Notes: generated by a model not told the origin, from the sequence alone. Positions 1,272 through 36,388 are shown, numbered from the stretch's first letter. The stretch: DNA of 64,000 nt from Patescibacteria group bacterium (GCA_041650995.1 JBAZJZ010000003.1:22662-86661), one strand, 5' to 3'. Numbers and translations are program-made.

Positions 1272-1738
1272 ATTTATCCGAGTAATGGGTAATCGCTCTC
1301 ATTTTTCCGTTTAAGATCGGGGAAAAGGGGGAGGAAAGTCCGGACACCGTTTCGACATAAAGTCGAAAGAGAGATAGTCGCTAACAGCGACGGGGAGTAT
1401 GCATTGTTGTTTGTGTTGCGTCTGCCGTTTACGCGGCGGGGGCAGCTTAATCGAACATCATTTGATGAAGCCCACGGACAGTGCAACAGAAAATATACCG
1501 CTCGAATCCCGACGAAAGTCGGGGTGAGACCCCGCAGTATTGCGGGGCGGGTAAGGTTGAAATCGTGAGGTAAGAGCTCACGCGGGACAGCCTGGTGACA
1601 GGCGCCGTGGAAAACACCTATCCGGTGCAAGGCAAAAATAGCCGCTTGAGGTTGCGAGCAATCGTGATCCCAGATAGATGATTACCGTTTCGCATCATTG
1701 CGGGATACAGAATCCGGCTTATAGTTACTCGGATAAAT
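1272..1738 (+). ncRNA. rnpB: RNase P RNA (bacterial type)
   Basis: Conserved P4 strands GGAGGAAAGTCCGGAC (about 1327-1342) and ACAGAATCCGGCTTA (1708-1722). AGTGCAACAGAAA motif present. Terminal P1 pairing ATCCGAGTAA (1276-1285) with TTACTCGGAT (1725-1734). Confidence 0.8.
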
Positions 1739-20808: not shown

Positions 20809-21072
20809 ATGACGACAAGAACGATTCTCGCTGAGGCCAAGCCGTTGGGGCATCCTTGCGGCCATTGCCGCACTCGCGGAACGTGCGGTTGTGACGTCTG
20901 TGTTCAAGGAGGCGGAGTTTGCGGGGAGTGCGGCGGACTCCGCTACTTCGTTCCTCCAACCACCATTTCCATGGATGAGTTCGATCCTCCACGAGAGGAG
21001 CCTCTTGCCAGAGTGGTCCTCGCCCGGCGGCCGAAGAAGCCACCGTTCGGGAGGAGGGTGGCTCGTCGCTAA
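20809..21072 (+). CDS. Cys-rich small protein (87 aa; 8 Cys in CGHCRTRGTCGCDVCVQGGGVCGECGG)
   Basis: RBS-like GGAAGGAGAGGGAAG before the ATG. Very GC-rich codons. Confidence 0.4.
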   Translation: MTTRTILAEAKPLGHPCGHCRTRGTCGCDVCVQGGGVCGECGGLRYFVPPTTISMDEFDPPREEPLARVVLARRPKKPPFGRRVARR

Positions 21073-21329: not shown

Positions 21330-21575
21330 TTATTTTGGATGGCGCAGGTTGTCCTTCCCGCAAAAGGGGCAATGAGTGACGTTTTCCAGGTAGCCAGACT
21401 GGCCGCCGTCTTCCCGCTTGCTCTCTTCGTAGCCGCAATGCGGACAGACGAGACAGTATTCGTCGACGATACATTGATAGTTGGCGAAATGGCGCTCGGA
21501 ATTCACGTCGCCGACGTAAAGACACTTGCAGTCTTTATGGCACTTCGGACACTTTGGTTTCGTTTCGACCATCAT
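21330..21575 (-). CDS. Double zinc-ribbon small protein (81 aa)
   Basis: CPKC...CKC, CPHC...CPFC pairs. Co-oriented and 15 nt downstream of the 101-aa ORF. Confidence 0.45.
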   Translation of the reverse strand: MMVETKPKCPKCHKDCKCLYVGDVNSERHFANYQCIVDEYCLVCPHCGYEESKREDGGQSGYLENVTHCPFCGKDNLRHPK

Positions 21576-21592: not shown

Positions 21593-21895
21593 TCTCTTGC
21601 CCTTGGGGTAAATGTAGCCCCGGTTGCCGTTCGGCAGGACGAAAGAGACTGTTCCGTCGTCCGTTTTTTTGATTAGCAGGTTTTTTCCCAGAGTGAAGTT
21701 TGAGTTGGGAAGATTTTTCCAGGGTCCGCGTTCGGCCGCGAATTGGCGGGCGAAATTCGCGAGCGTGAAGTGGACGAGAATGCCTTCCGGAAAAACCTGC
21801 GTGATGGTTCCCCGGAAAGTGAATCCGTCAGTCTGACAGGTTATCATCACCCGGCCGCAAAGGCCACTTCGGTCAATCAGTTCTCCGAGTGTCAT
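21593..21895 (-). CDS. Hypothetical protein (101 aa)
   Basis: Strong RBS AAGGAGG 5 nt before the ATG at 21895. The track ORF extends to 21943. Confidence 0.4.
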
Positions 21896-22065: not shown

Positions 22066-22632
22066 ATGGATCCAAACCAAGAAAAACAAATCATTAAAGC
22101 CTGCCAAGCCGGAAATTTTGAGGGTTTTGGTGAGCTCTACGAAGTGTACGTTAAAAAAATATACAGCTTTGTTTTTTACAAAACATATCATAAAGAAACG
22201 GCCGAAGATATTGTCTCGATAGTTTTTATGAAAGCTCTGGAAAATATCGGCTCCTATAAACCCGGCCGCGGGAGTTTTTCCGCCTGGCTTTACGGCATCG
22301 CTCGCCACGCCGTGGTTGATCATTTTCGTGCTGTCCGCCCGAGCGTTAACATTGAAGACGTTTGGGATTTGGCTGATGAGCAAAATTTAGAAATAGATCT
22401 TGACGCACGGGAAAAACTCAATGAAGTAAAAAAATATTTGGCAAAATTCAAGCCAACGCACCGCGAAATTATAATGATGCGTCTTTGGCAGGGATTGTCT
22501 TATCGGGAGATTTCAGAAATTATCGGATTCTCCGAGGCAAATTGCAAAATGATTTTTTCTCGCGAGATGGCAAAGCTTCGGGAGGAAATGGGAATAGTCG
22601 CGTTTTTACTTTTTATGTTTTTAAATATTTAA
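22066..22632 (+). CDS. ECF-type RNA polymerase sigma factor (sigma-70 regions 2 and 4)
   Basis: Region 2 (FSAWLYGIARHAVVDHFR) and region 4 HTH (LSYREISEIIGFSEANCKM). Extended -10 TGATATAAT upstream at about 21985-21993. Confidence 0.8.
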   Translation: MDPNQEKQIIKACQAGNFEGFGELYEVYVKKIYSFVFYKTYHKETAEDIVSIVFMKALENIGSYKPGRGSFSAWLYGIARHAVVDHFRAVRPSVNIEDVWDLADEQNLEIDLDAREKLNEVKKYLAKFKPTHREIIMMRLWQGLSYREISEIIGFSEANCKMIFSREMAKLREEMGIVAFLLFMFLNI

Positions 22633-22645
22633 TCTTAAAAAATAT

Positions 22646-24283
22646 ATGGAAAACTTAATCAAAGAAATAATGGACGAGTTATTTGCCATTGACCCGAGTT
22701 TGAAAAAATATCAAAAAGAATTGGAGGCGGCTACGGCTAAAATGATAGCCAACAAACCCGATGATAGGTTTGATGAAAATTTTCGGCAGGAATTGAAAAT
22801 GAAATTGCTCGCGCGGGCTGAAGAATTGGAAAAAGGAGAAAAAGTAAAATTTTCATTTTGGCGAAGTTTAAAATTTTGGCGGGGTTTTTCTTTGGCCGCG
22901 GTCGTGGCAGCGCTTGCCTTAATTGTCGTAATACCCGCGATTCAAAACGGTCAGTTTAGTTTATTTAATTTTAAAAGCGGCAGTCCGCTGTCTTTAATTT
23001 CCGGGACAATGAATATTGAAGAGGCGGGTGAGCGAGCTTTTGGCGATCTTGCTTCTTCCAGCCAGGCTTTAACTAATTTAGAATTAGGAGATTCATCAGA
23101 CGCTTATTATAGCGCGCCCACGCCCGCCGCCGCGCCGAAAACACAGTCTTCAACTTCGCGCGAAGAAATTCTCGCGCGTGAAGTTTCGGGGCTTGGTGGA
23201 GGTAGCGGAACGAACGCCGCCGCGCCGGACGTAAAAATGTTGCCACCCGAGTACGCGACAAAATATAATTATGTTTACATTGGCGAAGATTTTTCTTTCA
23301 CGGAAGAGAGTGTGGCCGTCTTAAAACGTCTTAAAAGTTATGGCAGTGAAAATCTCAGTTCGGTTTTAAACAATTTAAGCTTTGGACTTTTTGACGCGAG
23401 CAAATTAAGAAATGTTAAAGTTCAATCAATGTCTATTGCCGAGGATCGCGACGGGGGATACGTGGTAGATTTTAATCCTTATGAGGGCACGATTTCTTTT
23501 TACGAAAATTGGCAAAAAATAATGCCGGTTAATTATGAAACCCAGCCGCGACTTCGAGAGTCTGATGTTCCGACAGACGAAAAATTAATTGAGACAGCCA
23601 ATGATTTTTTGTCGCGCTTTGGAATTGACCGCGGAAATTATGGCACGCCAATTGTCGGCCAAAGCTGGAAATTGGGTTATGCCAATGTCCGGGACGAAGA
23701 TATTTGGATTCCTGACACGATGACCGTGCAATATCCGTTGCTCTTGGGCGGGAAGGAAGCTTGGGAGCAGGGCGGTTACGACCGAGCCGGATTTTCCGTT
23801 AACGTAAATATCAGAACAATGAAAGTCACGGGTCTTTACGGACTTACAACACAAAATTATCAAAGTTCAAATTACGCCGCGGAAACTGATAAAAATCGTC
23901 TCTTAAAATTCGCGCTGCAGGGAGATCTTTGGCCGCAGCCAACATATCCGGAAGAAAATTTTAAAGTGAAAGAAGTGGAAATAAAACTTGGCACGCCGAG
24001 CGTGCAATATATGAGATATTGGAAATATGAAGGAAATCAAAGCAGCGAACTTTTTCTTCCGGCTTTGGTTTTCCCGGTAATTGACAAGAGCCAGGCTGAC
24101 GAATATTTTACAAAAAAAGTGGTGGTAGTTCCGCTCGTTCGGGAAATTTTGGATAGCGCGGAAAGAGAAAACACCATTACGCCACCAGCAATTTTAGAAT
24201 ATAGAAAAGACATGGGGTCATCTTCATCTCAGATTTTAACTCCTACTCAGGAGCCCTTGCCGCCAGAGAAGGTTCAGAATTAA
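22646..24283 (+). CDS. Putative anti-sigma factor / membrane-anchored extracytoplasmic protein
   Basis: Immediately downstream of the ECF sigma gene. Short cytoplasmic N-terminus, a single TM (AAVVAALALIVVIPAI), and a large extracytoplasmic domain. Confidence 0.4.
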   Translation: MENLIKEIMDELFAIDPSLKKYQKELEAATAKMIANKPDDRFDENFRQELKMKLLARAEELEKGEKVKFSFWRSLKFWRGFSLAAVVAALALIVVIPAIQNGQFSLFNFKSGSPLSLISGTMNIEEAGERAFGDLASSSQALTNLELGDSSDAYYSAPTPAAAPKTQSSTSREEILAREVSGLGGGSGTNAAAPDVKMLPPEYATKYNYVYIGEDFSFTEESVAVLKRLKSYGSENLSSVLNNLSFGLFDASKLRNVKVQSMSIAEDRDGGYVVDFNPYEGTISFYENWQKIMPVNYETQPRLRESDVPTDEKLIETANDFLSRFGIDRGNYGTPIVGQSWKLGYANVRDEDIWIPDTMTVQYPLLLGGKEAWEQGGYDRAGFSVNVNIRTMKVTGLYGLTTQNYQSSNYAAETDKNRLLKFALQGDLWPQPTYPEENFKVKEVEIKLGTPSVQYMRYWKYEGNQSSELFLPALVFPVIDKSQADEYFTKKVVVVPLVREILDSAERENTITPPAILEYRKDMGSSSSQILTPTQEPLPPEKVQN

Positions 24284-24303: not shown

Positions 24304-24336
24304 AGGCGCGGGGCCCCAACCCCGCGCTTTATTATT
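24304..24336 (+). terminator. Rho-independent terminator
   Basis: GCGCGGGGccccaaCCCCGCGC followed by TTTATTATTT. Confidence 0.6.
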
Positions 24337-24427
24337 TAGATAAACTCCAGCCCCAATTTTGCAACTAATTTAGTTTTGTAGATAATTTTTTTTGCCAAGG
24401 ACGGATCTAAAATTTAAATAAATAAAA

Positions 24428-24456
24428 AAAGAGGGACGCGCGGGGCGATCCCTCTG
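24428..24456 (-). terminator. Rho-independent terminator (minus strand) ending the three-paralog operon
   Basis: The minus strand reads AGAGGGAtcgccccgcgcgTCCCTCT followed by TTTTTTTA. Confidence 0.5.
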
Positions 24457-24483
24457 GAGCGGTTTCACGCTCGGTTGTCGGGA

Positions 24484-24816
24484 TTAGTTTGTCTCTTCCG
24501 GCTGGCAGGCGCCAAGCGGCGTGCCGAAGAGCTTCGTGGCGAACGGCCCGGCCGCGATGATGCTTCGCTGCCTCTTCTCGGCATGGCTCTGGAGAGCCGT
24601 CTCGAGATGAGCCTTGAGGCCGATCTGTTCGTCCGCGGAGACTTGCATCACCGCGGCCAGACTGGCCAAAGCGCCAAGGCAGATCTCCCTGTCTGCCGGC
24701 AGCAGGTCTGTCGTGCCCATCATGATGTCGCCCTTCGCGATGGAAAAGAAGCAGCTCTGGCCGTCTTTTGTGAAAGTGATGACCAGGCTGTGCACCATGA
24801 GTTTGAAAGCACCCAT
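24484..24816 (-). CDS. Small Cys-containing protein, paralog A (110 aa), unknown family
   Basis: RBS GGAAGGAGG 6 nt upstream. Shares KLM..., ...CF(F/L)...KG(D/E)I... and (E/R)(I/T)C(L/F)..L..LA(A/V) blocks with the two ORFs upstream. Confidence 0.5.
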   Translation of the reverse strand: MGAFKLMVHSLVITFTKDGQSCFFSIAKGDIMMGTTDLLPADREICLGALASLAAVMQVSADEQIGLKAHLETALQSHAEKRQRSIIAAGPFATKLFGTPLGACQPEETN

Positions 24817-24845
24817 CTTTCCTCCTTCCTTTTCGCGAGTAGTTG

Positions 24846-25175
24846 CTAGTTCAACTGCTGCGCGGCCTCGGTGCGCAGGATGTCGTTGATGATCTTTTCC
24901 GTGAAGAAGTCGCGTCCGACAGCGACCATCGGTCGCGTAGCTCTCTCGTACTCATCGAAAGCCGCGTTCAGTTGGTCCTTGAGCTTGGCGCATTCGGGCT
25001 CTGGGATTTGCTCCAGGTAAGCCACGAACTTTAGGGCCGCAAGGCAGGATCTCCTGGTCGGCCACATGAAAGGAACAGCCGCGAGCTCGACCCTATCCTT
25101 CAGGATGGCGAACGAGCCGTAACAGCAGCCGACGCCGAAGTTGAATTCCAAGGTGTAGGTTGCCTTGTTCTTCAT
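24846..25175 (-). CDS. Small Cys-containing protein, paralog B (109 aa)
   Basis: RBS GGAGGG upstream. Same architecture, more divergent (GCCYGSFAIL...RRSCLAALKFVAYL). Confidence 0.45.
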   Translation of the reverse strand: MKNKATYTLEFNFGVGCCYGSFAILKDRVELAAVPFMWPTRRSCLAALKFVAYLEQIPEPECAKLKDQLNAAFDEYERATRPMVAVGRDFFTEKIINDILRTEAAQQLN

Positions 25176-25244
25176 TTTTTAACCCTCCCTCTTTGGTCCG
25201 TCCGAGCCTTTCGCGCGGGCGGCCTGATTCCAAGAACCCAAACT

Positions 25245-25499
25245 TTACGGTTGACGTGTCTCGGCGTCGTGTTTTCGGAAAGCTTCCTCCAGCTGTGCAC
25301 GGAGATTATTCTGCTCCTCCTCCGGGACACCGTTTGACACAGCCAGGTTTTCCAGGACGCGAAAGCAGGTTTCCTGGTCTGCTTTGACCGGCGGCGCGAT
25401 CGCAACCAAGATCTCGCCTTTCTGAACGATGAGAAAGCACGTCGAGTCGCCGTTCATCCAACTCACCGCCAAGGCATACCTCATGAGCTTTGCATCCAT
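25245..25499 (-). CDS. Small Cys-containing protein, paralog C (about 84 aa)
   Basis: ATG at 25499 with GGAGGG 9 nt upstream (the track start 25517 is TTG). KLMRYALAVSW...STCFLIVQKGEIL...ETCFRVLENLAV aligns with paralog A. Confidence 0.45.
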   Translation of the reverse strand: MDAKLMRYALAVSWMNGDSTCFLIVQKGEILVAIAPPVKADQETCFRVLENLAVSNGVPEEEQNNLRAQLEEAFRKHDAETRQP

Positions 25500-25552
25500 T
25501 TTCCCCATTCCCTCCAACCCTCGCTCGTTTGAGAGTACATTATTTTATATCA

Positions 25553-25592
25553 TTTTTATCAGAGAATTGTCAAGAGGCAGGGGGTTTACTTT
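25553..25592 (-). promoter_or_regulatory. Sigma70-like promoter (minus strand) for the three-paralog operon
   Basis: The reverse complement reads cTTGACAattctctgataaaaaTGaTATAAA (-35 plus extended -10). Confidence 0.4.
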
Positions 25593-25646: not shown

Positions 25647-28600
25647 ATGAATGGTCAATTCGTGAAAGAATTTGTCTCCACAATTTCGGAAAAATATAAA
25701 ACCGGTCAGGCAAAAGAGATGGCCTATCGGCCGGCGCTTGAAAAACTATTTCAAGATATTACCGGCTTGAATGTGATAAACGACCCCAAGCGGAGCGAAT
25801 ACGGCGCGCCGGACTTTGTTTTTATAAAAGGTAAGATTGCCGCCGCTTATGCCGAAGCCAAAGACCTGGGTGTGTCGCTTGACGAAACGGAAAAGGGCGA
25901 GCAGATGGCACGTTATTTTGGTTATCCGAATTTAATTTTGACAAATTGTTTGGAGTTTAGGTTTTTTAGAAATGGAGAAAAATATGAAACCGTAAAAATT
26001 GCTGAAATAAAAAATAGCGAAATCGCGTCGGTTGAAGATAGTTTTAATCTTTTGGAAGATACACTCTTGGCATTTATCAAAGAAGCCAAAGAGCCGATTA
26101 AGTCCGGTGTTGTTCTCGCCAAAGTGATGGCCGGCCAGGCGCGGCGCATTCGCGACAATATCAAAAAATATTTAAAAGAGGGCGACGAAAAGAAAAATGA
26201 AAGTTTGATTGCCGTTTATAATACTATTAAAAAATTATTACTCGCCGATTTGGATCACGAAAAATTTGCCGATATGTACGCCCAGACAGTTGTCTACGGT
26301 TTATTCGCGGCTCGCTATCATGATAAAACGGCAGACACTTTTTCTCGTGGAGAGGCGCGCGATTTGGTGCCAAAATCCAACCCATTTTTACGTAAATTTT
26401 TTGACCACATTGCCGGAGAAGATTTTGACGAGCGCGTAGAGTTTATTGTCAATGAACTCTGCGAAGAATTTAAGCACGCCGATATTCAGGCGATCGTGCA
26501 TGATTATTACAAAGTGGAAAAGGACGACAGCCGCGACCCGATTGTTCATTTTTACGAAGATTTTTTGCAGGAGTATGATGCGGCCGAACGAAAAAAGATG
26601 GGAGTTTTTTATACCCCCTTGCCGGTGGTGTGTTTTATTGTTCGCGCGATTGATGATGTTTTGAAAAAAGAATTTGGTCTAAACGGTTTGGCTGATACTT
26701 CCAGAACGGAAATAAAAGGGTTGCAGGGAATGAAGGCAAAACAGTCGGTTCACAAAGTTCAAATACTTGATCCGGCGACCGGTACCGGCACATTTTTAAA
26801 CGAAGTGATTTTGCAAATTAAAAAATCATTTGTCGGACAAGAGGGCCGATGGTCAAGTTATGTTCGTGATGATTTACTGCCGCGGTTGCACGGATTTGAA
26901 ATAATGATGGCGCCGTACACCATCGCCCATCTTAAACTTTCCACGCTTTTGAAAGAAACTGGAGTGGATATAAAAGACGAACGTATAGAAATTTACCTCA
27001 CTAATTCTCTGGAAAAAGCGGATAAATATGATGATACGCTTTTTGCCGGTTTAGGTTTTGATAAAGCTATCACGGAAGAATCTCGTTTAGCCGGAAAAGT
27101 TAAAAATGATTTGCCAATAATGGTAGTGCTCGGCAATCCGCCGTACAATGTCAGCTCACAAAATAAAGGCGAATGGATCGGCGAGTTGATAAAAGATTAT
27201 AAAAAAGATCTGGATGAAAGGAATATACAACCTTTATCCGATGATTATATTAAATTTATCCGCTTCGCCCAATATCTTGTAGACAAAAATGGCGAGGGAA
27301 TTATTGGGATGATTACCAACAATTCTTACATTGACGGAATTACCCATCGCCAAATGCGTAAAAATCTTTTGGAAACTTTTGATAGTATTTATATTTTGGA
27401 TTTGCACGGCAATGCTAAGAAAAAAGAAACCGCGCCCGACGGCAGCGTTGATCAAAATGTATTTAGTATAATGCAAGGCGTGTCCATCGCGCTGTTTGTC
27501 AAAAAAGCAGGCAAGAAAAAATCACTCGGCACGGTTTATCACGCTGAATTATTTGGAAAGCAAAAAGACAAATACGAGGCGTTGAATAATTTTGATTTTG
27601 AAAAGATGAAATGGAATAAGATTGATTGCAAGGATCCGTATTACTTTTTTGTGCCAAAGGATTTTAGAGCAGAGGATGAGTATAAAGAGGGGATCAGCGT
27701 AACTAATTTATTTCAAAAATGGGCTTCGGGAGTTGCTACTGCGAAAGATGACCTGATAATAAAATTTTCAGTCGATGAGATCAAGGAGCTTCGCGCCAGT
27801 TTTAGTAGATATTCAGATCAAGAGATAGCGCAGAAATACCAAGTCGACCAGAAAAAGGTTGTTCAAGTCAGAAAGGATATGGATAACGTTATTGGCGAAT
27901 ACACCCCTATTTTATATCGACCATTTGACACAAGATATACCCTTTACTCTCCGAACAGTGAAGGCGTGTTTCAAAGACCAAGGCCAGAAATAATGAAGCA
28001 CTTGTTAAAAGACAATTTGGCAATTTTAACATGTAAACAACAGACTAGTTTTGATTTTCAGCATGTATTTTTGTCAGCGACAATTACAGATCGATGTGGT
28101 GTTTCATTACAAACCGGTGAAGTCGGATATGTTTTCCCTCTTTATCTTTATGCCGACGACGGATCAAAAATTCCGAATCTCAAAAAAGAAATTGTGGCTG
28201 AAATAGAAAAAATTGTCGGCAAGGTGACGCCGGAAAATGTTTTGGATTATATCTACGCCGTTTTGCACTCGCCGAGTTATCGCGAAAAATATAAAGAATT
28301 TTTGAAGATAGATTTTCCGCGGGTGCCGTATCCGAAAAATGAAAAGCGATTTTTCGCGTTGGCAAAATTGGGCGAGGAGTTGAGGCATCTGCATTTGTTG
28401 GAAAGTTCGAAGGTTGAAAAATTTATTACCACTTATCCCGAGGCAGGGGATAATTTGGTGGAAAAAGTTGTCTATAAAGATGGAAAAGTTTATATTAATG
28501 CTTCGCAATATTTCGGTGGCGTGCCGGAAATCGCCTGGAACTTTTCCATCGGCGGCTATCAGCCGGCGCAGAAATGGTTGAAAGATCGCAAAGGCCGCAA

Positions 28601-28697
28601 ACTCTCCAACGCCGACATTGAACATTATCAAAAAATTGTTGTGGCGTTGGTGGAGACGGATAAACTTATGAGAGGAATTGATAAAGTTAATAAATAA
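25647..28697 (+). CDS. Type IIG restriction enzyme / N6-adenine DNA methyltransferase fusion (MmeI-like)
   Basis: N-terminal PD-(D/E)xK-like GAPDFVF...AEAKD. Gamma-class MTase motif I ILDPATGTGTFL and motif IV VVLGNPPYN. Long C-terminal target-recognition region. 1016 aa. Confidence 0.7.
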   Translation: MNGQFVKEFVSTISEKYKTGQAKEMAYRPALEKLFQDITGLNVINDPKRSEYGAPDFVFIKGKIAAAYAEAKDLGVSLDETEKGEQMARYFGYPNLILTNCLEFRFFRNGEKYETVKIAEIKNSEIASVEDSFNLLEDTLLAFIKEAKEPIKSGVVLAKVMAGQARRIRDNIKKYLKEGDEKKNESLIAVYNTIKKLLLADLDHEKFADMYAQTVVYGLFAARYHDKTADTFSRGEARDLVPKSNPFLRKFFDHIAGEDFDERVEFIVNELCEEFKHADIQAIVHDYYKVEKDDSRDPIVHFYEDFLQEYDAAERKKMGVFYTPLPVVCFIVRAIDDVLKKEFGLNGLADTSRTEIKGLQGMKAKQSVHKVQILDPATGTGTFLNEVILQIKKSFVGQEGRWSSYVRDDLLPRLHGFEIMMAPYTIAHLKLSTLLKETGVDIKDERIEIYLTNSLEKADKYDDTLFAGLGFDKAITEESRLAGKVKNDLPIMVVLGNPPYNVSSQNKGEWIGELIKDYKKDLDERNIQPLSDDYIKFIRFAQYLVDKNGEGIIGMITNNSYIDGITHRQMRKNLLETFDSIYILDLHGNAKKKETAPDGSVDQNVFSIMQGVSIALFVKKAGKKKSLGTVYHAELFGKQKDKYEALNNFDFEKMKWNKIDCKDPYYFFVPKDFRAEDEYKEGISVTNLFQKWASGVATAKDDLIIKFSVDEIKELRASFSRYSDQEIAQKYQVDQKKVVQVRKDMDNVIGEYTPILYRPFDTRYTLYSPNSEGVFQRPRPEIMKHLLKDNLAILTCKQQTSFDFQHVFLSATITDRCGVSLQTGEVGYVFPLYLYADDGSKIPNLKKEIVAEIEKIVGKVTPENVLDYIYAVLHSPSYREKYKEFLKIDFPRVPYPKNEKRFFALAKLGEELRHLHLLESSKVEKFITTYPEAGDNLVEKVVYKDGKVYINASQYFGGVPEIAWNFSIGGYQPAQKWLKDRKGRKLSNADIEHYQKIVVALVETDKLMRGIDKVNK

Positions 28698-28715
28698 TTT
28701 TTTAAAAGTTATTAT

Positions 28716-29549
28716 ATGTGGAGGGTTAAACCGCATACAAGAGAAAAATTGGAATATTTCAGAAAGTATATCGAAGCATATACAACCGCAACTAAAAAAC
28801 TACCTTTGAAATATTATATTGATGCTTTCGCCGGAACAGGAAAGTGTGTCCTCTGCGGTGAAAAATGCAGTTCGGAGGGGTGGTCAAGATGTGAAAAGTG
28901 TGGCAGAGGTAATTTAATTGATGGATCGGCATTGATTTCCTTAAAAATAAAAAATAAATTTAATGGTTATTTATTTGTTGAGCTAAATAAAAAAAGTTTT
29001 AAAATTTTGAATAATTTAGTGATTTCTGAAAAAAGTAATGTCTCTCCATCCATTTCAGTGAAAACACGCAATGATGATTCGAATAAACTACTAAAAGATT
29101 TGTATAAATATATACCTTCTCGGGCTGGCTGTTTGGTATTTCTAGATCCGAAGGGCGCCGAGCTTTATTGGGAAACCGTTGTCTCCTTATCAAAGATTAG
29201 AAAAGTAGACATCCTCATTTTGTATCCTTATGACATGTCTCTTGTAAGATTAATCAGAGATTATCCAAAAAAATTAGATCTTTTTTATGGCTCTACGGAT
29301 TGGTCGAATGTTTATAACTCGAAAGATAATTATAATGAGAAGAGAAGGAAAGAAGCGTTATTAAGTTTTTATAGGGAAAATTTAAAAAAATTAGGATTTG
29401 AGTACGTTGTCTATAAACAGATAAGAAGAAATTTAAGATCTGGCAAGGCTCTTTATCATTTAATTTTGGTGACACATAGCTCCATCGGCAAAAAAATTAT
29501 GGAGAATATCTTTGATAAAGAGATAGATGGGCAGACAAAGCTTTGCTAG
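28716..29549 (+). CDS. Protein with MTase motif-I-like DAFAGTG plus a CxxC-x9-CxxC zinc ribbon; resembles 'three-Cys-motif partner protein (TcmP)' annotations
   Basis: YYIDAFAGTGKCVLCGEKCSSEGWSRCEKCG. 277 aa, about 30-33% GC. The TcmP assignment is from memory of family descriptions, not verified. Confidence 0.4.
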   Translation: MWRVKPHTREKLEYFRKYIEAYTTATKKLPLKYYIDAFAGTGKCVLCGEKCSSEGWSRCEKCGRGNLIDGSALISLKIKNKFNGYLFVELNKKSFKILNNLVISEKSNVSPSISVKTRNDDSNKLLKDLYKYIPSRAGCLVFLDPKGAELYWETVVSLSKIRKVDILILYPYDMSLVRLIRDYPKKLDLFYGSTDWSNVYNSKDNYNEKRRKEALLSFYRENLKKLGFEYVVYKQIRRNLRSGKALYHLILVTHSSIGKKIMENIFDKEIDGQTKLC

Positions 29550-29576
29550 AGTGGTTTTTGTTGTTATAATATAAGT

Positions 29577-30443
29577 ATGAAAAAGGCGGGGGAGATACAA
29601 AGGAAATCGCTTTTGTATAAAAGCGGCGTGGAGTACGCCGACTATTGTATTAATCACGCCGAAGGCTGCTCACACGGTTGCAGGTTTCCTTGCTACGCCA
29701 TGATGATGAAAAAACGGTGCGGTGTGATAAATAGTTATGAAGATTGGATCAAGCCCAAAATAGTTGCGAACGCCTTGGAACTTTTGGATAAAGAAATTCC
29801 AAAATTGAAAGATAAAATTAAAGTTGTTCACCTTTGCTTCACAACTGATCCATTCATGTATAAGCAAAAAGAAATTTCCGATTTGACTTTGAAAATTATA
29901 AAGAGACTGAACGACGATAATATAAAGTGCACGGTACTGACAAAAGGTGTCTACCCCAAGGAATTAATTGACGTTGAAAAATACGGCGGAAATAATGAGT
30001 ATGCAATCACGCTCGTATCTTTGAATGAAGGATTTAAAAAAAGATTTGAGCCGGGAGCCGCGCCGTACGAAGATAGGGTAAAATCTTTAAAATATTTGCA
30101 TGACCATGGATTGAAAACCTGGGTAAGCATGGAGCCGTACCCAACGCCGAACTTAGTGGATCAGGATTTAAAGAAAGTTTTGGCAAAGATTAATTTTGTT
30201 GATAAAATTATTTTTGGGAAATTGAATTATAACATTAAGGTGACAGAATTTCAGGACAATAAAGATTTCTACGATGGTTGCGCAAAAATTGTTATAAATT
30301 TTTGTGAGAAAAATAATATTGGATATCACATTAAATACGGAACTCAGAAAAAAGACAACAAAAAAACGGAAAAAATTTTTCGAAAGGATTTTGTTTCCGA
30401 GAAACAGAGACGGGTTGATTGTTTAGAGCCAGTATATTTATAG
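29577..30443 (+). CDS. Radical-SAM-like protein with a non-canonical Cys cluster (C-x6-C-x3-C-x3-C; SplB/COG1533-like)
   Basis: CINHAEGCSHGCRFPCYAMM near the N-terminus, 288 aa, 28 nt downstream of the previous gene, same low GC. Confidence 0.45.
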   Translation: MKKAGEIQRKSLLYKSGVEYADYCINHAEGCSHGCRFPCYAMMMKKRCGVINSYEDWIKPKIVANALELLDKEIPKLKDKIKVVHLCFTTDPFMYKQKEISDLTLKIIKRLNDDNIKCTVLTKGVYPKELIDVEKYGGNNEYAITLVSLNEGFKKRFEPGAAPYEDRVKSLKYLHDHGLKTWVSMEPYPTPNLVDQDLKKVLAKINFVDKIIFGKLNYNIKVTEFQDNKDFYDGCAKIVINFCEKNNIGYHIKYGTQKKDNKKTEKIFRKDFVSEKQRRVDCLEPVYL

Positions 30444-30457
30444 AAAACAGATTTTTA

Positions 30458-30487
30458 AAAAAGTGGCCCTTGCCACTTTTTCTTTAC
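30458..30487 (+). terminator. Bidirectional hairpin terminator
   Basis: AAGTGGCccttGCCACTT flanked by A- and T-tracts on both sides. Confidence 0.5.
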
Positions 30488-30577
30488 CGCAGCTCAAATC
30501 TCAATGTTTGTGAAGAGTGGTCTTGAATTTAAAACAAAAAGCCCCTCAAAAAGCTGACGGGAATTTTACTCAATCAA

Positions 30578-30763
30578 CTAAATTGTGGAGTCCACAATAT
30601 CAGCCGACCAAGCAATCAATTTTACTCGACTAGCAGAATTAATAGAGGCTTGCTTTGAGGAGTAAGCCTCACTCGCAGCGACCTTCTCGCCGTTTATGGC
30701 TTGAAGGCGCCATCTATGATATCCAGCAGCGTCTTTGTAAATGACGAATCGAGGATTTGTCAT
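30578..30763 (-). CDS. DUF1508 (YegP/UPF0339) domain protein, 61 aa
   Basis: FVIYKDAAGYHRWRLQAINGEKVAASEAYSSKQASINS matches the YegP repeat consensus (F.lykd..G.fRfrL.a.NGe.ia.SegY.sK). Confidence 0.7.
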   Translation of the reverse strand: MTNPRFVIYKDAAGYHRWRLQAINGEKVAASEAYSSKQASINSASRVKLIAWSADIVDSTI

Positions 30764-31077
30764 ATTTGTTCCGTTTATTTTTATTTAATCTAGGGAGTCG
30801 ACCTTTACGCTGCTCCCTTCTTCAAAACCTGTTTAGATTCTGAAGGAGAGAGGTAAAGGTGACTTAATCTAGAAAGAAATAAAAGTCCCGGAATATCCCG
30901 CCAGCTTTTCAAAGAGCTTTAACAGTAATTTTATCAAGGATTATTTTAGGGGTCAATGGTTTATGAAAAAAATATTTTATCTCATAATTTTTTCCATCGT
31001 AATTTTGAGATCAGCCGGTTGGCGCAAAGCAAAAAATTGTCCTTAAAAAATTTAGAACATCACAGACATAATAAAAT

Positions 31078-31584
31078 ATGACTCTTGAACAAAAAATCGC
31101 CAAAGCATTTAGGATGGATGAGAAAACTCGTCAACGACATTCAAATCCCTGGAGCGTCTATTCGCGTTTTTCCATGATCCCGCTCCTTGGTTTGGCATTC
31201 TGGAGCAGGGTATGGCTCGGTTGGTGGTCACTCGCGCTGATTGCTGTTGTGCTTTTATGGGTTTGGACAAATCCTCGAATTTTTTCTGCGCCAAAAAGTA
31301 CTAACAATTGGGCATCTAAAATAGTGCTTGGCGAATGGGTTTGGATGAATCGAAAAAACGTACCTGTGCCGACACATCATCAATACGCGCCCAATATCCT
31401 TTCCGCAATCGGAGCGATTGGCGCAATCCCTTTTATCTGGGGCCTGTACGCGCTTGAAATATGGCCGGCGGTTTTTGGCGGCGTTGTTATTGTCATAAGT
31501 AAATTGTGGTTTGCGGACCGCATGGTATGGTTATATGAAGATATGAAAGACGCCACGCCAGAATACAAAAGTTGGCTTTATTGA
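31078..31584 (+). CDS. Trp-rich integral membrane protein (168 aa)
   Basis: 3-4 predicted TM segments. Shared 18-nt motif upstream. Confidence 0.4.
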   Translation: MTLEQKIAKAFRMDEKTRQRHSNPWSVYSRFSMIPLLGLAFWSRVWLGWWSLALIAVVLLWVWTNPRIFSAPKSTNNWASKIVLGEWVWMNRKNVPVPTHHQYAPNILSAIGAIGAIPFIWGLYALEIWPAVFGGVVIVISKLWFADRMVWLYEDMKDATPEYKSWLY

Positions 31585-32961: not shown

Positions 32962-33204
32962 TCGGTAATTAGTAATTGAAAAGCGGTCCGAGCGGCCGCT
33001 TTTTGGTTTATAAAATTTTTTGTGGTAAAATTATAAAATAAAAATAGTTTTAATTTTTAAATTTGGGAAATTATGAAAAAACTTTTTGAAGGAGGGACAA
33101 AAGGTCGAATAGATCCCGCAGCATTGCAGGACCGAATAGATCCCGCAGGATTGCGGGACAGGCTCTTTGAAAATTCCGCCTTTGGCGGGAAAGGAGAATG
33201 GAAA

Positions 33205-33798
33205 ATGAAGAAAGGGATCATGCTCGTGACGGCACTCGTTGGCGTGCTGGTTTTGGTCGGTTGGGGTTGCGGGAATTCCGCGGCGCCCACTGACACAAAC
33301 TCGGATATGAATGTTTCCGAGACTTCCTCAGACAGCGTGCCAGAAGTCACGTCCGACACGACCGGAGAAATTCCGGCCGGTTGGACAGAGTACAGGAACG
33401 AGCAGTGGGGGGTGAATTTCATTTACCCCGCGGGCTGGCAGTACCAAGAGTATAGCGAGACAGTTGAAGGCGAAGAGGTGGCGACCCTCGCTTTCTCAGA
33501 CCAGGAGTTGCCAGAAACTTTGCCGCCAGAACCTTTGTTTCCGATCATGGTTTTCCGCGACGCGAGGACCGTAGAAAGCGCAATGTCTGACTACACGGAG
33601 GCTGTTGCTGCGGAAGATATCACGCTCGGGAGTAGAGTAGTAAAAAAGATTATTTACTACTCTAATATTCTCGAACAGAACGACAGGGTCTATCTAATTC
33701 CTCTGCGTGATGGGATTTTGAAACTCTTTGTACCAGATAGTGCGAGTTACGTTTCCACGGCTGAAACCATGATTGCCAACCTTACTGAGACAGAGTAG
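33205..33798 (+). CDS. Putative lipoprotein (GC-rich)
   Basis: RBS AAGGAGA 7 nt upstream. Signal peptide with LVGWGC lipobox-like cysteine. The track ORF starts upstream at 33073. Confidence 0.45.
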   Translation: MKKGIMLVTALVGVLVLVGWGCGNSAAPTDTNSDMNVSETSSDSVPEVTSDTTGEIPAGWTEYRNEQWGVNFIYPAGWQYQEYSETVEGEEVATLAFSDQELPETLPPEPLFPIMVFRDARTVESAMSDYTEAVAAEDITLGSRVVKKIIYYSNILEQNDRVYLIPLRDGILKLFVPDSASYVSTAETMIANLTETE

Positions 33799-33808
33799 GA
33801 GACAGACA

Positions 33809-36388
33809 ATGGAAAAGTTCAAGATGGGCGCGCTGTGCCTGGTGTTGTGGTTTTTGTTGCCGCGCAATTCCGAGGCAGAAGAGTTTCTGTACCTGCCGAT
33901 TACCAGAACGCCGGTCATCACTTCAGGTTTCTGTGGTTACCGGACCGCGTCTGGCGCTTGCCATGGTGGTATTGACTATGACGTTCGCGACGACGGCGAT
34001 GGAATCTTCGCCGCAGCGGATGGCGTAGTTGAGGTTGCAGAAGATGGCTGGCTAAATACCTACCATGGGAGACGGGTGTATGGCAATTACGTACAAATAC
34101 TTCACGACAACGGCTATCGTACCATCTATGCCCACTTTAAAAGAGGCAGCCTGGAAGTCAGTGTGGGCGATGAGGTCAGTGTCGGTCAACTTTTAGGAAT
34201 TGGTGATAACTCTGGTTGGTCAACTGGCTCGCACCTGCACTTCGAAGTCCGCGATTCGAGCGGACGCAAGGTAGATCCTTACGGCGACAGCCCATCATAT
34301 CCAAACTGTGGCGCAAATCACCTTTGGGTAAATTGCCCACCAACAGTGTGGGTTGACGAGGACAGAGATGCCGACACATGGACAGTTGAAGAAGGCGACT
34401 GTGACGACACAAATCCCAACATCTATCCCGGCGCGGTAGAACGCTGCAACGGCGTGGATGACAATTGCGCGGATGGCGTGGACGAGGAACCAGCGGCGAG
34501 TTACGCTTGCCGCGACAGCGTGGACTGCACCATTGACGCCTGCATGGTTGGCGCGCACGTTTGTACCAACCGTCAAAATGACGCGGCTTGCGAAGACGGC
34601 GATCCCTGCACTACAAACCTCTGTATTATTCTGACCGGCTGTCGCGCGATTCCCAAGGACACGGACTTGGACGGTTTCGTGGATATTTCCTGCGGCGGCG
34701 ATGACTGCGACGATTCCAATATGGCCATCCGCCCTGATGCCGCGGAGAAGTGCAATAACATTGATGACGACTGCGACACGGAAACCGACGAAGACTGGCT
34801 GTTACTCGGAACCAGTTGTAATGTTGGCTTTGGCGAATGTCGGCGAAGCGGCATCTGGGTTTGCGAACCTCTGGAGCGCGCCACAGTCTGCGACGCCGAG
34901 TATATTTCTGGCACGCCGGAACTTTGCGACGGCCTGGACAATGATTGCGACACAGAGACTGACGAGGATTGGCCTGAGCTTGGCACGGCCTGCGGAATTT
35001 TCCCCTGCGACGGGACATATGTCTGTTCTCTTGGCGGCTCTGGTTCATACTGCAATGCCAGTCCTGGCATGCCTGAGACTTGCGACGGCCTGGACAATGA
35101 CTGCGATGGTGAAACCGATGAATCTCCGGCGGAATTTTCCTGCGGCGACGGAAATGACTGCACGGTTGATTCGTGCGTGCTTGGCGCATGCCGACATTTT
35201 TCGCGCGATCGCGACGGCGACACTCATGGCGACGACCTCTGTGGTGGTACCGATTGTAACGATCTTAACCCCGCGGTTTGGGAATACGCTTTCAGCGAAT
35301 CGCGGTTGACAAACTCGGCTGGAGATTCTAATTCCCCGGCCGTGGCGTGGACAGGTTCAGAACTTGGAATTGTTTGGGAAGATTGGCGGGCGGGCATTCC
35401 CAACGCGGAAATATACTTCGCCCGGGCAGACACTTCGCTCGCGAGAATTGGCGATGAAGTCAGAGTGACAAATGCCTCATGGGGATCGCGCGAACCGTCT
35501 CTGAGCTGGACTGGCTCAGAGTATGGTGTGGCTTGGTATGACCTTCGGGTTGACTCTCGTTCCGAAGTCTTCTTTACTCGGCTTGATTCTACTGGGCTGG
35601 AAATTGGCGATGATATCCAACTGACAGACCATTTTGCTCTTTCCGGCGCGAGTTATGAACTATCTCTCACCTGGACAGGAAGTGACTATGGCATTGTCTT
35701 TCAGGATAGCCGCCTTAGCTCAATGGATATTTTCTTCGTGCGGCTGGATTCCGGCGGGATAGCGATTGCTCCCGAAGCGCCTGCTATTTCAGACAGCGGA
35801 CCTGAGAGTTTTCCAGTTCTTGTTTGGACAGGGAGTCAATACGGTCTGGCTTACACTGTTTCAATCGACGGCTATCAGCAGATCTTCTTCGCGCGGTTTG
35901 ATTCTTCCGGTGTAAGAACAGGCGCCGTTACGAGAGTTGCCTCGTTTGATTCGGGCGGGAGATTCTACGCTGAAACAGTCGATCTCGTTTGGCAAGGCAG
36001 AGAGTTCGCTTTGGTCTGGACAAAGAACATGGCGAGCGGCGCGAGGGAGGTTTATTTCCGGAGATTGGACGCGGCTGGTGTACCACTTGCTCCTGAGGTT
36101 CTGGTTGCGACTAGTCCGGACATAATCTATCGCGTTGCCATCGCGTGGAATGGGAGAGAATACGGGGTTATTTGGCAAGAAAGTTCTGGCATGTTGGCCA
36201 ATGTTTACTTTGTCCGGCTAGCTGAAGCTGGCAGTAGGCTCGGTACGGTGATCCGGATTTCAAGTACTGCCAGAAATTCGGAAAAGGAAGTCGTGGTTTG
36301 GACCGGTCACGAGTACGTCATGGCCTGGTCGGACAATCGCGACAGCGATTGGGAGATCTACCTTGGTCGCGTCAGTTGCGGCTGGTAG
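33809..36388 (+). CDS. Secreted multidomain protein: M23 (LytM-type) peptidase, Cys-rich MopE-like repeats, and a 7-blade beta-propeller
   Basis: Signal peptide. M23 core HGGIDY...DG...GSHLHFEVRD. Seven copies of the C..DxDCDxxTDE motif. Seven WTGSEYGxxW...(F/Y)FxRLD repeats. 55-60% GC. Confidence 0.65.
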   Translation: MEKFKMGALCLVLWFLLPRNSEAEEFLYLPITRTPVITSGFCGYRTASGACHGGIDYDVRDDGDGIFAAADGVVEVAEDGWLNTYHGRRVYGNYVQILHDNGYRTIYAHFKRGSLEVSVGDEVSVGQLLGIGDNSGWSTGSHLHFEVRDSSGRKVDPYGDSPSYPNCGANHLWVNCPPTVWVDEDRDADTWTVEEGDCDDTNPNIYPGAVERCNGVDDNCADGVDEEPAASYACRDSVDCTIDACMVGAHVCTNRQNDAACEDGDPCTTNLCIILTGCRAIPKDTDLDGFVDISCGGDDCDDSNMAIRPDAAEKCNNIDDDCDTETDEDWLLLGTSCNVGFGECRRSGIWVCEPLERATVCDAEYISGTPELCDGLDNDCDTETDEDWPELGTACGIFPCDGTYVCSLGGSGSYCNASPGMPETCDGLDNDCDGETDESPAEFSCGDGNDCTVDSCVLGACRHFSRDRDGDTHGDDLCGGTDCNDLNPAVWEYAFSESRLTNSAGDSNSPAVAWTGSELGIVWEDWRAGIPNAEIYFARADTSLARIGDEVRVTNASWGSREPSLSWTGSEYGVAWYDLRVDSRSEVFFTRLDSTGLEIGDDIQLTDHFALSGASYELSLTWTGSDYGIVFQDSRLSSMDIFFVRLDSGGIAIAPEAPAISDSGPESFPVLVWTGSQYGLAYTVSIDGYQQIFFARFDSSGVRTGAVTRVASFDSGGRFYAETVDLVWQGREFALVWTKNMASGAREVYFRRLDAAGVPLAPEVLVATSPDIIYRVAIAWNGREYGVIWQESSGMLANVYFVRLAEAGSRLGTVIRISSTARNSEKEVVVWTGHEYVMAWSDNRDSDWEIYLGRVSCGW

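Follow-up and report, generated by a model that had tools for sequence, protein, structure and literature searches.

In a stretch of 64,000 nucleotides (nt) from a Patescibacteria group bacterium (GCA_041650995.1, JBAZJZ010000003.1:22662-86661), referred to below as the window, three consecutive minus-strand genes, here called A, B and C, constitute an operon whose small paralogous products appear from sequence searches to form a new, clade-restricted orphan family with no detectable relative elsewhere among 1.84 billion representative proteins. The operon is found at a fixed chromosomal position with variable content: one to three copies, mosaic alleles, and very unequal divergence of the individual copies. 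We tentatively propose, as one possibility, that the encoded proteins may be abundant cytoplasmic binding proteins of an immunity, antitoxin or decoy type, in which a conserved hairpin scaffold would be combined with a sheet and a tail of variable specificity. The small genomes of the Candidate Phyla Radiation (CPR) are full of unassigned genes, and the operon provides a concrete and testable case of a lineage-specific, conflict-like family.

Each of the three genes has its own ribosome-binding site (RBS) of the GGAGG type, located 5-10 nt upstream. The start of gene A at an ATG within a longer open reading frame (ORF) is backed by the starts of its orthologs in two related loci, L001 and L003, and the product is identical to the protein WC445_04125 of a metagenome-assembled genome (MAG) at NCBI. 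The operon is bounded by one promoter and one intrinsic terminator (Table 1). The promoter has been read from the sequence, as the promoter scan misses its -10 hexamer TATAAA because it demands T at position 6; an element of the form TTGACA-17/18-TGnTATA(A/T)(A/T) is kept in 12 of the 13 family loci, where it precedes the first family gene by 72-110 nt. A preliminary description of this DNA had correctly recognized a strong promoter, but had placed it at 25553-25592, i.e. shifted with respect to the element at 25544-25573. The terminator, which had also been noted there, is indeed present; it was overlooked by the terminator scan because of its 12-nt loop, and in L001 and L003 a different but equivalent hairpin with a T-run stands in its place. 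The conserved promoter consensus, three strong RBSs and the terminator demonstrate that A-B-C is one transcription unit, in agreement with the earlier reading of three tandem ORFs in a single operon.

The mutual similarity of the three products is real. BLASTP aligns A with C (36% identity, E 2e-17) and B with C (28% identity, E 1e-7), while no pairwise similarity is reported for A and B, which are linked via C and the family profile; judged by sequence comparison, A, B and C are true paralogs. A KLM motif that had been ascribed to all three copies is present in A and C and missing from B, and of the two Cys residues described as conserved, both of which align in the three window copies, only one, in the first helix, is invariant across the family. 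We also found that, contrary to the preliminary description, plus-strand ORFs longer than 90 amino acids (aa) do exist in this region, namely those of 124 aa (24475..24849) and 91 aa (24614..24889). The codons of the former are exactly in register with those of gene C, as expected of the shadow of a gene with high GC content at third codon positions (GC3). An antisense frame that shares the register has codon position 1 as the most variable one and a higher ratio of nonsynonymous to synonymous substitution rates (dN/dS). For gene B, comparison with the orthologs in L001 and L003 clearly favours the minus strand (dN/dS 0.10-0.19; 5/3/15 changes at codon positions 1/2/3), whereas for gene C (dN/dS 0.39-0.49) the substitutions tell the frames apart weakly (21/11/25 on the minus strand vs 26/11/21 antisense). 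The coding status of the minus strand is decided by the family-wide protein homology in that frame, which extends over very diverged sequences, and the alternative that the three ORFs are shadows of a plus-strand gene is thereby refuted. Each of the copies is under purifying selection (dN/dS 0.10-0.49). Structured RNA was considered as a cause of the GC richness or of low synonymous divergence (dS) and rejected because the RNA folding z-scores of A, B and C are unremarkable (-0.54, -0.36 and -2.18, respectively); a search of Rfam at E<=1 over 20.5-25.8 kb also gave no match. A still longer shadow is seen in L007, where a 328-aa antisense ORF covers 2.5 family genes in exact codon register (Table 1), illustrating how GC3-rich genes yield long ORFs that are open to mis-annotation by gene callers.

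An exhaustive profile search of the representative proteins identified 17 genuine clusters, all of 82-138 aa; two further weak matches, to P0021 (3286 aa) and to a moth protein, P0022, are each limited to about 30 residues and were treated as spurious. Word-index searches returned near-identical proteins only. Scans of all 21 members against Pfam, NCBIfam, PHROG and PADLOC gave scattered chance matches only, the family profile produced one chance match among PDB sequences (E 1.1), and a literature search revealed nothing on the family, which the preliminary description had likewise been unable to place. No relatives were found in IMG/VR with three sub-alignments, nor by tblastn among GenBank phages and PLSDB plasmids with one member each, and a profile scan of genome contigs re-found only OZ246416.1, the contig of L011 and L014.

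In the alignment of 21 sequences four columns are invariant (C46, L50, E63 and L67, in the numbering of protein C) and three are near-invariant (M1, L11 and A54), in addition to an IPxDE turn and a QLExAFR helix. The invariant Cys (C46) is located at the start of helix 1 and the invariant Glu within the IPxDE turn, while the first Cys is frequent. Two forms of the protein can be distinguished: a tail-less one, encoded by the first gene of multi-gene operons (A, P0010, P0013 and P0015), and a tailed one, encoded by the later genes and by the single genes of L005, L010 and L011, with a C-terminal amphipathic motif P(F/V/L)xxxL(I/V) that was read by eye from the alignment. By eye, no signal peptide or membrane segment is evident in the proteins, which range from mildly acidic to neutral (net charge from -7 to +3, pI mostly 4.7-6.8). 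An AlphaFold model based on 6 sequences was too uncertain (pLDDT 54), and we used the one obtained for protein C with the 21-sequence alignment, in which the core (pLDDT 86-89) has the topology b1-b2-b3-a1-a2 and the tail is disordered. The predicted core is thus a sheet of three strands that packs against a helical hairpin.

Foldseek comparison of the model with PDB and with the BFVD viral models gave no match at E<=1e-3. At the level of fold only, the predicted beta3-alpha2 core may resemble PSRP-3/Ycf65 (cS23), a plastid and cyanobacterial protein of the 30S subunit (PDB 5mmm_w and 2kt9), and eL28. The sequence identity of the window proteins to PSRP-3 is 5-9%, there is no match to its Pfam profile (which we take to be PF04839) or in the search of PDB sequences beyond the chance match mentioned above, and the window proteins differ from it in being acidic to neutral, hypervariable, and confined to one clade of Patescibacteria. 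Also among the closest known folds, eL28/Mak16 and the CCT-like (PF2) peptide-binding domain of WNK/OSR1 belong to eukaryotic families that lack any sequence relationship to the window proteins, and every Foldseek E-value is >1e-3. The resemblance to the N-terminal part of RNase H is weak (E 0.3-0.6), and a type II antitoxin of the HicB-like, partial RNase H fold was rejected, as there is no Pfam or PADLOC match and the operon holds paralogs of the family only; neither a profile match nor a close fold match was found for YegP/DUF1508 (UPF0339). The fold of Roadblock/LC7/MglB, to which the proteins had initially been likened, is an alpha-beta-beta-alpha-beta-beta-alpha sandwich; it is not matched by the predicted core, and none of the 21 members matches the Pfam profile (Robl_LC7, presumably PF03259) even at E<=1, which excludes this assignment.

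The content of the locus varies strongly among relatives. One copy is present in L005, L010, L011 and L015-L017, two in L012 and L013, and three in the window, L001, L003 and L007. In five loci that are roughly equidistant from the window by their sigma factor (L001, L007, L011, L012 and L017), A is 34-55% and C 27-73% identical to the window protein, while B is 94%, 62% or 39% identical or the gene is absent; the 94% identity extends over L001-L003. In L004, a near-identical strain, C is 99% identical and is the only intact gene behind the same promoter: an in-frame deletion has joined codons 1-16 of A to the final 23 codons of B, which leaves a chimera of 39 aa (L004 364-483); in our reading, the deletion seems to have run across an imperfect ACG(G)CGACT repeat.

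Divergence is equally uneven along the operon. In comparison with L001, the dS of gene A (dN/dS 0.31) is 2.5 over codons 1-52 but 0.47 over the remaining codons, gene B has 0.24, and gene C has 0.58, then 0.36, then 0.18 along its length, against 0.8-1.2 in the flanking genes. Exchange of alleles between lineages offers the best explanation of this mosaic. Since no DNA repeats link the paralogs and no pair of the TR/VR type is present, neither gene conversion between the copies nor a diversity-generating retroelement is likely here. At the protein level, the N-terminal sheet is variable and the helices are conserved, the N-terminal half of gene A is hyperdivergent between relatives, and the tail of gene C (codons 80-111) evolves nearly neutrally (dN/dS 0.96).

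The operon also differs in composition from its surroundings, with GC content of 0.55-0.60 vs 0.41 for the rest of the window and GC3 of 0.67, 0.79 and 0.79 for A, B and C, compared to 0.31-0.46 in 43 of the 46 other large ORFs and 0.56 in two. Family-wide, GC3 is 0.64-0.92, with one exception of 0.50, in genomes with GC content of 0.40-0.48. The GC excess includes many NCG codons, and Arg is at least as frequent as Lys. Translational codon selection is an unlikely cause of the high GC3, as GroEL (0.44) and a probable rubrerythrin, recognized from its N-terminus, have values of 0.44-0.46 and as many of the codons are NCG. Recent third-position changes, polarised by parsimony, comprise 15 from GC to AT and 2 from AT to GC, close to the ratio of about 6:1 calculated for the AT-biased mutation of the host acting on GC-rich sequence; mutation, accordingly, does not keep up the GC richness of the operon. 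This leaves two candidate explanations, namely repeated reseeding of the alleles from an unseen GC-rich pool or a GC-favouring fixation process. The composition had been taken to mean that the block was probably acquired horizontally, and it does look foreign, with allele exchange between relatives indicated by the mosaic; however, a simple recent acquisition is too simple an account, because the locus is syntenic across the whole clade and nearly every member in every genome is GC-rich. The GC3 excess in the face of AT-biased mutation constitutes a small, well-defined puzzle of how composition is kept up in reduced genomes.

Nine related loci have the flanking genes of the window; five short contigs (L005, L010, L013, L015 and L016) do not reach far enough to reveal them. 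On the 3' side of the operon, and convergent with it, lie genes for a sigma factor of the extracytoplasmic function (ECF) type and for a 545-aa membrane protein without a Pfam match (Table 1), which are 79-97% and 63-93% identical across the related loci; in L004, L007 and L017 extra genes are inserted between the operon and this pair. On the 5' side there is a variable slot, which extends up to a conserved 215-aa PsbP-like gene (not found in L017). In the window it is occupied by what looks like a swappable island at ~25.6-31.6 kb, which begins with a restriction-modification (RM) enzyme of Type IIG, includes a 277-aa gene without a Pfam match and a radical-SAM/DUF5131-like gene, which may resemble a known mobile radical-SAM gene pair, and differs in content or is absent in the relatives. 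L005 and L017 have MerR/98-aa upstream genes in common. Neither integrase nor transposase genes were found at the locus, and no toxin domain was detected among the neighbours examined. Between the 545-aa gene and the operon terminator we noticed a GC-rich palindrome, AGGCGCGGGGCCCCAACCCCGCGCTT, at 24304-24329, which reads as a terminator on both strands.

Table 1. Positions of the operon, its signals, and its genomic neighbours in the window and, where a locus is named, in related contigs
Feature	Position	Strand	Remarks
Gene A	25499..25245 (ORF 25245..25517)	-	84 aa from ATG 25499; tail-less form
Gene B	24846..25175	-	109 aa; tailed form; best conserved of the three copies
Gene C	24484..24816	-	110 aa; tailed form; faster-evolving
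A-B spacer	25176..25244	-	carries RBS GGGAGGG; 85-95% identity to L001/L003
Operon promoter	25544..25573	-	-35 TTGACA 25573-25568; 18-nt spacer ending TG; -10 TATAAA 25549-25544
Intrinsic terminator	24424..24455	-	stem AGAGGGA/TCCCTCT (24455-24449/24436-24430); 12-nt loop; T-run
Antisense ORF, L007	7383-8369	-	328 aa
ECF-type sigma factor	22066-22632	+	Pfam Sigma70_r2/r4 on orthologs
545-aa single-pass membrane protein	within 22066..24283	+	anti-sigma-like by position only
Gene W	20809-21072	+	small orphan gene, CxxC-rich
Gene Z	21330-21575	-	small orphan gene, zinc-ribbon-like
Gene Y	21593-21895	-	small orphan gene, 101 aa
Island (5' slot), window	25647-31584		Type IIG RM, 277-aa gene, radical-SAM gene, 168-aa gene
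Type IIG/IIL RM enzyme	25647..28697	+	divergent from operon; Pfam N6_Mtase, Eco57I, Type_ISP_C
Radical-SAM/DUF5131-like gene	29577-30443		
Slot, L001			Type IIG RM and NYN-domain gene
Slot, L007			628-aa D12+N4/N6 double methyltransferase, 463-aa gene, NOV_C gene
Slot, L011			250-aa N4/N6 methyltransferase and 173-aa gene
Slot, L012			empty
Slot, L018			480-nt gap, probably empty
5' side, L017			MerR-like and STAS-like genes, another Type IIG enzyme
L001, L007, L011, L012, L017			sigma 79-85%, anti-sigma-like 63-71% identity to window
L004, near-identical strain			sigma 97%, anti-sigma-like 93% identity to window
L002			anti-sigma-like gene 71% identity to window
L018			215-aa gene 73% identity to window
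L003			only RM gene and operon retained
Family T copies	L005 3267-4000; L006; L015 1535-1756; L016 3-155; L017 10000-10245		
Very AT-rich RVT_1 gene and HsdM-like gene next to GC-rich block, L013	26-2976 and 4737-7506		abut block of 0.58-0.63 GC
241-aa and 871-aa ORFs	33073-36388		GC 0.54-0.55; GC3 0.56
RNase P RNA	1277-1737		bacterial class A, 181.8 bits

In the mechanism that we tentatively put forward, A, B and C would be stoichiometric binding proteins present in large amounts, with the conserved helical hairpin as a scaffold or as a face that binds a common partner and with specificity set by the variable sheet and the tail. The targets could be toxins or other proteins that reach the cell from competitors, hosts or mobile elements, and their variability would be the reason why duplication, deletion and allele exchange keep the locus diverse; the adjacent RM gene would be a neighbour in a hot spot and not a partner. 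In favour of such binders we count the paralogy and coding status of the genes, the conserved expression signals, the fold and charge of the proteins, the variable content at a fixed site, the mosaic dS, the A'-B' fusion, the opposition of a variable sheet to conserved helices, and the defence-gene hot spot alongside. By analogy, the family's behaviour resembles that of known hypervariable arrays of small conflict-type proteins: like tandem immunity or antitoxin arrays, it comprises small proteins encoded by diverged tandem paralogs, with copy-number variation, allele replacement, atypical composition and a defence hot spot alongside. The likeness is behavioural only, as the operon, unlike such arrays, lacks a cognate toxin gene, matches no known immunity or antitoxin family, and consists of one family under one strong promoter. 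A polymorphic-toxin immunity protein was rejected as a specific assignment, given the lack of a toxin domain in the examined neighbours and of an Imm profile match in Pfam.

Several points weigh against this proposal. No gene for a toxin, an effector or another partner recurs consistently next to the operon, and no immunity, antitoxin or defence profile is matched in Pfam, PADLOC, PHROG or NCBIfam. The whole-gene dN/dS never exceeds 1, so that diversification is indicated by allele replacement and not by demonstrated positive selection, and the persistent GC richness is left unexplained by the binder model. Besides, the evidence comes from a small sample of about 14 independent loci, all of one clade, and the cytoplasmic location is a reading of the sequence and not the result of a prediction tool. 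If the idea of binding or immunity proteins is correct, the family could hint at what these episymbionts defend themselves against.

Other explanations of the operon have to be weighed against the binder model. The vicinity of an RM system, which had led the preliminary description to consider anti-restriction, could mean that the proteins act in anti-restriction or restriction alleviation, or as controllers of the divergent methyltransferase or RM gene. The first divergent gene is a methyltransferase or RM gene in 5 of the 9 readable contexts (the Type IIG enzymes of the window and L001, as well as L007, L011 and, with an HsdM-like enzyme, L013), in L017 a Type IIG enzyme follows two genes further on, and the promoters of the operon and the RM gene are back-to-back. 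However, the operon keeps its place beside methyltransferases that are unrelated in type, the slot is empty in L012 and probably in L018, the upstream divergent gene of L004 is a different, non-RM one (with an N-terminus that we take to be RhuM-like), and that position in L005 is taken by small proteins and an S-adenosylmethionine (SAM) synthetase. ArdA, KlcA/ArdB and Ocr, like the RM controller (C) proteins, have small size and RM proximity in common with the window proteins, but the window genes are chromosomal, syntenic and present where there is no RM gene. The family matches no profile of the anti-restriction proteins in Pfam, PHROG or PADLOC, its charge is unlike that of a DNA mimic, and no relatives were found in the phage and plasmid collections; a C protein is contradicted by the absence of a helix-turn-helix (HTH) profile match and by the persistence of the operon when the RM type changes. 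We consider a functional link to RM highly improbable and, since the slot content differs or is absent while the operon stays, regard the adjacency as hot-spot geography; the locus thus separates adjacency to an RM gene from working with it. The sigma/anti-sigma-like pair is convergent with the operon and next to it in the window, L001, L011 and L012 and near it in L004, L007 and L017, and the proteins could be members or modulators of an envelope-stress regulon, or thiol redox sensors that use the invariant Cys at the helix N-terminus; the family has an invariant Glu as well. On the other hand, the family genes of L013 have no sigma pair within 3.5 kb, the operon promoter conforms to the sigma-70 consensus and is not of the ECF type, and a fixed regulatory partnership would not usually combine a conserved sigma pair (79-85%) with small proteins that are replaced or differ in number. 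An accessory role in the ECF system appears unlikely, albeit less so than the link to RM.

A possible resemblance of the predicted fold to PSRP-3/cS23 and eL28/Mak16 raises the question of small proteins associated with ribosomes or RNA, to which we give very little credence. The sequence identity to these proteins is 5-13%, with no match to the Pfam profile of PSRP-3 and no Foldseek E-value reaching 1e-3, and the pI values, in our judgement too acidic for a binder of ribosomal RNA, argue against binding to the 30S subunit; moreover, hypervariability, variable copy number and restriction to a narrow clade are unlike what is seen in ribosomal components. The operon might also be decaying cargo of a GC-rich mobile element or another foreign source, devoid of current function, whose frames and paralogy would be merely historical. 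This would account for the GC-rich third positions in GC-poorer genomes, for the 15:2 excess of changes towards AT, for the deletion of most of A and B in L004, and for the clustering of GC-rich small orphan genes, but it is difficult to reconcile with purifying selection on all the copies, with intact frames and RBSs, and with a near-identical strong promoter in 12 of 13 loci despite protein identities of 25-40%. Neither a donor nor an integrase or transposase at the locus, nor viral or plasmid relatives, have been found, and we regard decay as quite improbable.

Apart from A, B and C, the window includes three other small orphan genes (W, Z and Y) with GC3 of 0.56-0.66, homologs of which adjoin family genes in L001, L004, L011, L012, L013, L016 and L017. 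Y evolves fast: its identity to the window copy is 31-37% in L011 and L017, against 83-85% for the sigma factor of these loci. In L016 Z directly follows a family gene. In L013 the order is X, X, Y, Z, Y, V, V, V, where X denotes the operon family, and the sigma pair is missing; the GC-rich block there comprises two X, two Y-like genes, a gene for a 274-aa multi-zinc-ribbon protein and three paralogs of family V, i.e. Cys-containing proteins of 88-91 aa, to which a 193-aa gene in L007 also belongs. Comparison of the operon family with the Y and V families by hhalign revealed no relation. The L013 block is abutted by a very AT-rich gene for a reverse transcriptase (RVT_1) and by one for an HsdM-like methyltransferase. 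Yet another orphan family, T (73 aa, with a range of 71-81 aa), is characterized by the motif GEWREAAKAxGYxVPxxLCxGL, is less GC-rich, and is found immediately next to X, divergent or convergent to it, on five contigs (L005, L006, L015, L016 and L017). It is conceivable, though rather doubtful, that the operon, together with Y, Z, W and V and with T co-located, represents a clade-specific hypervariable gene set that is kept apart by its composition (GC3 0.64-0.92 for most members, in genomes of ~41-48% GC) in spite of current mutation from GC to AT. If so, there would be either an undiscovered pool of GC-rich genes that repeatedly reseeds one chromosomal site in these Patescibacteria, or strong GC-favouring fixation acting on a new conflict or recognition system.

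Farther from the operon, the window contains two ORFs of 241 and 871 aa with elevated GC content (Table 1), which may correspond by position to the large M23/MopE or CHAP/MopE proteins of L001 and L011. Its remaining content includes ordinary chromosomal features, such as RNase P RNA and six tRNA genes (tRNA-Arg, Ala, Val (x2), Leu and Asp).

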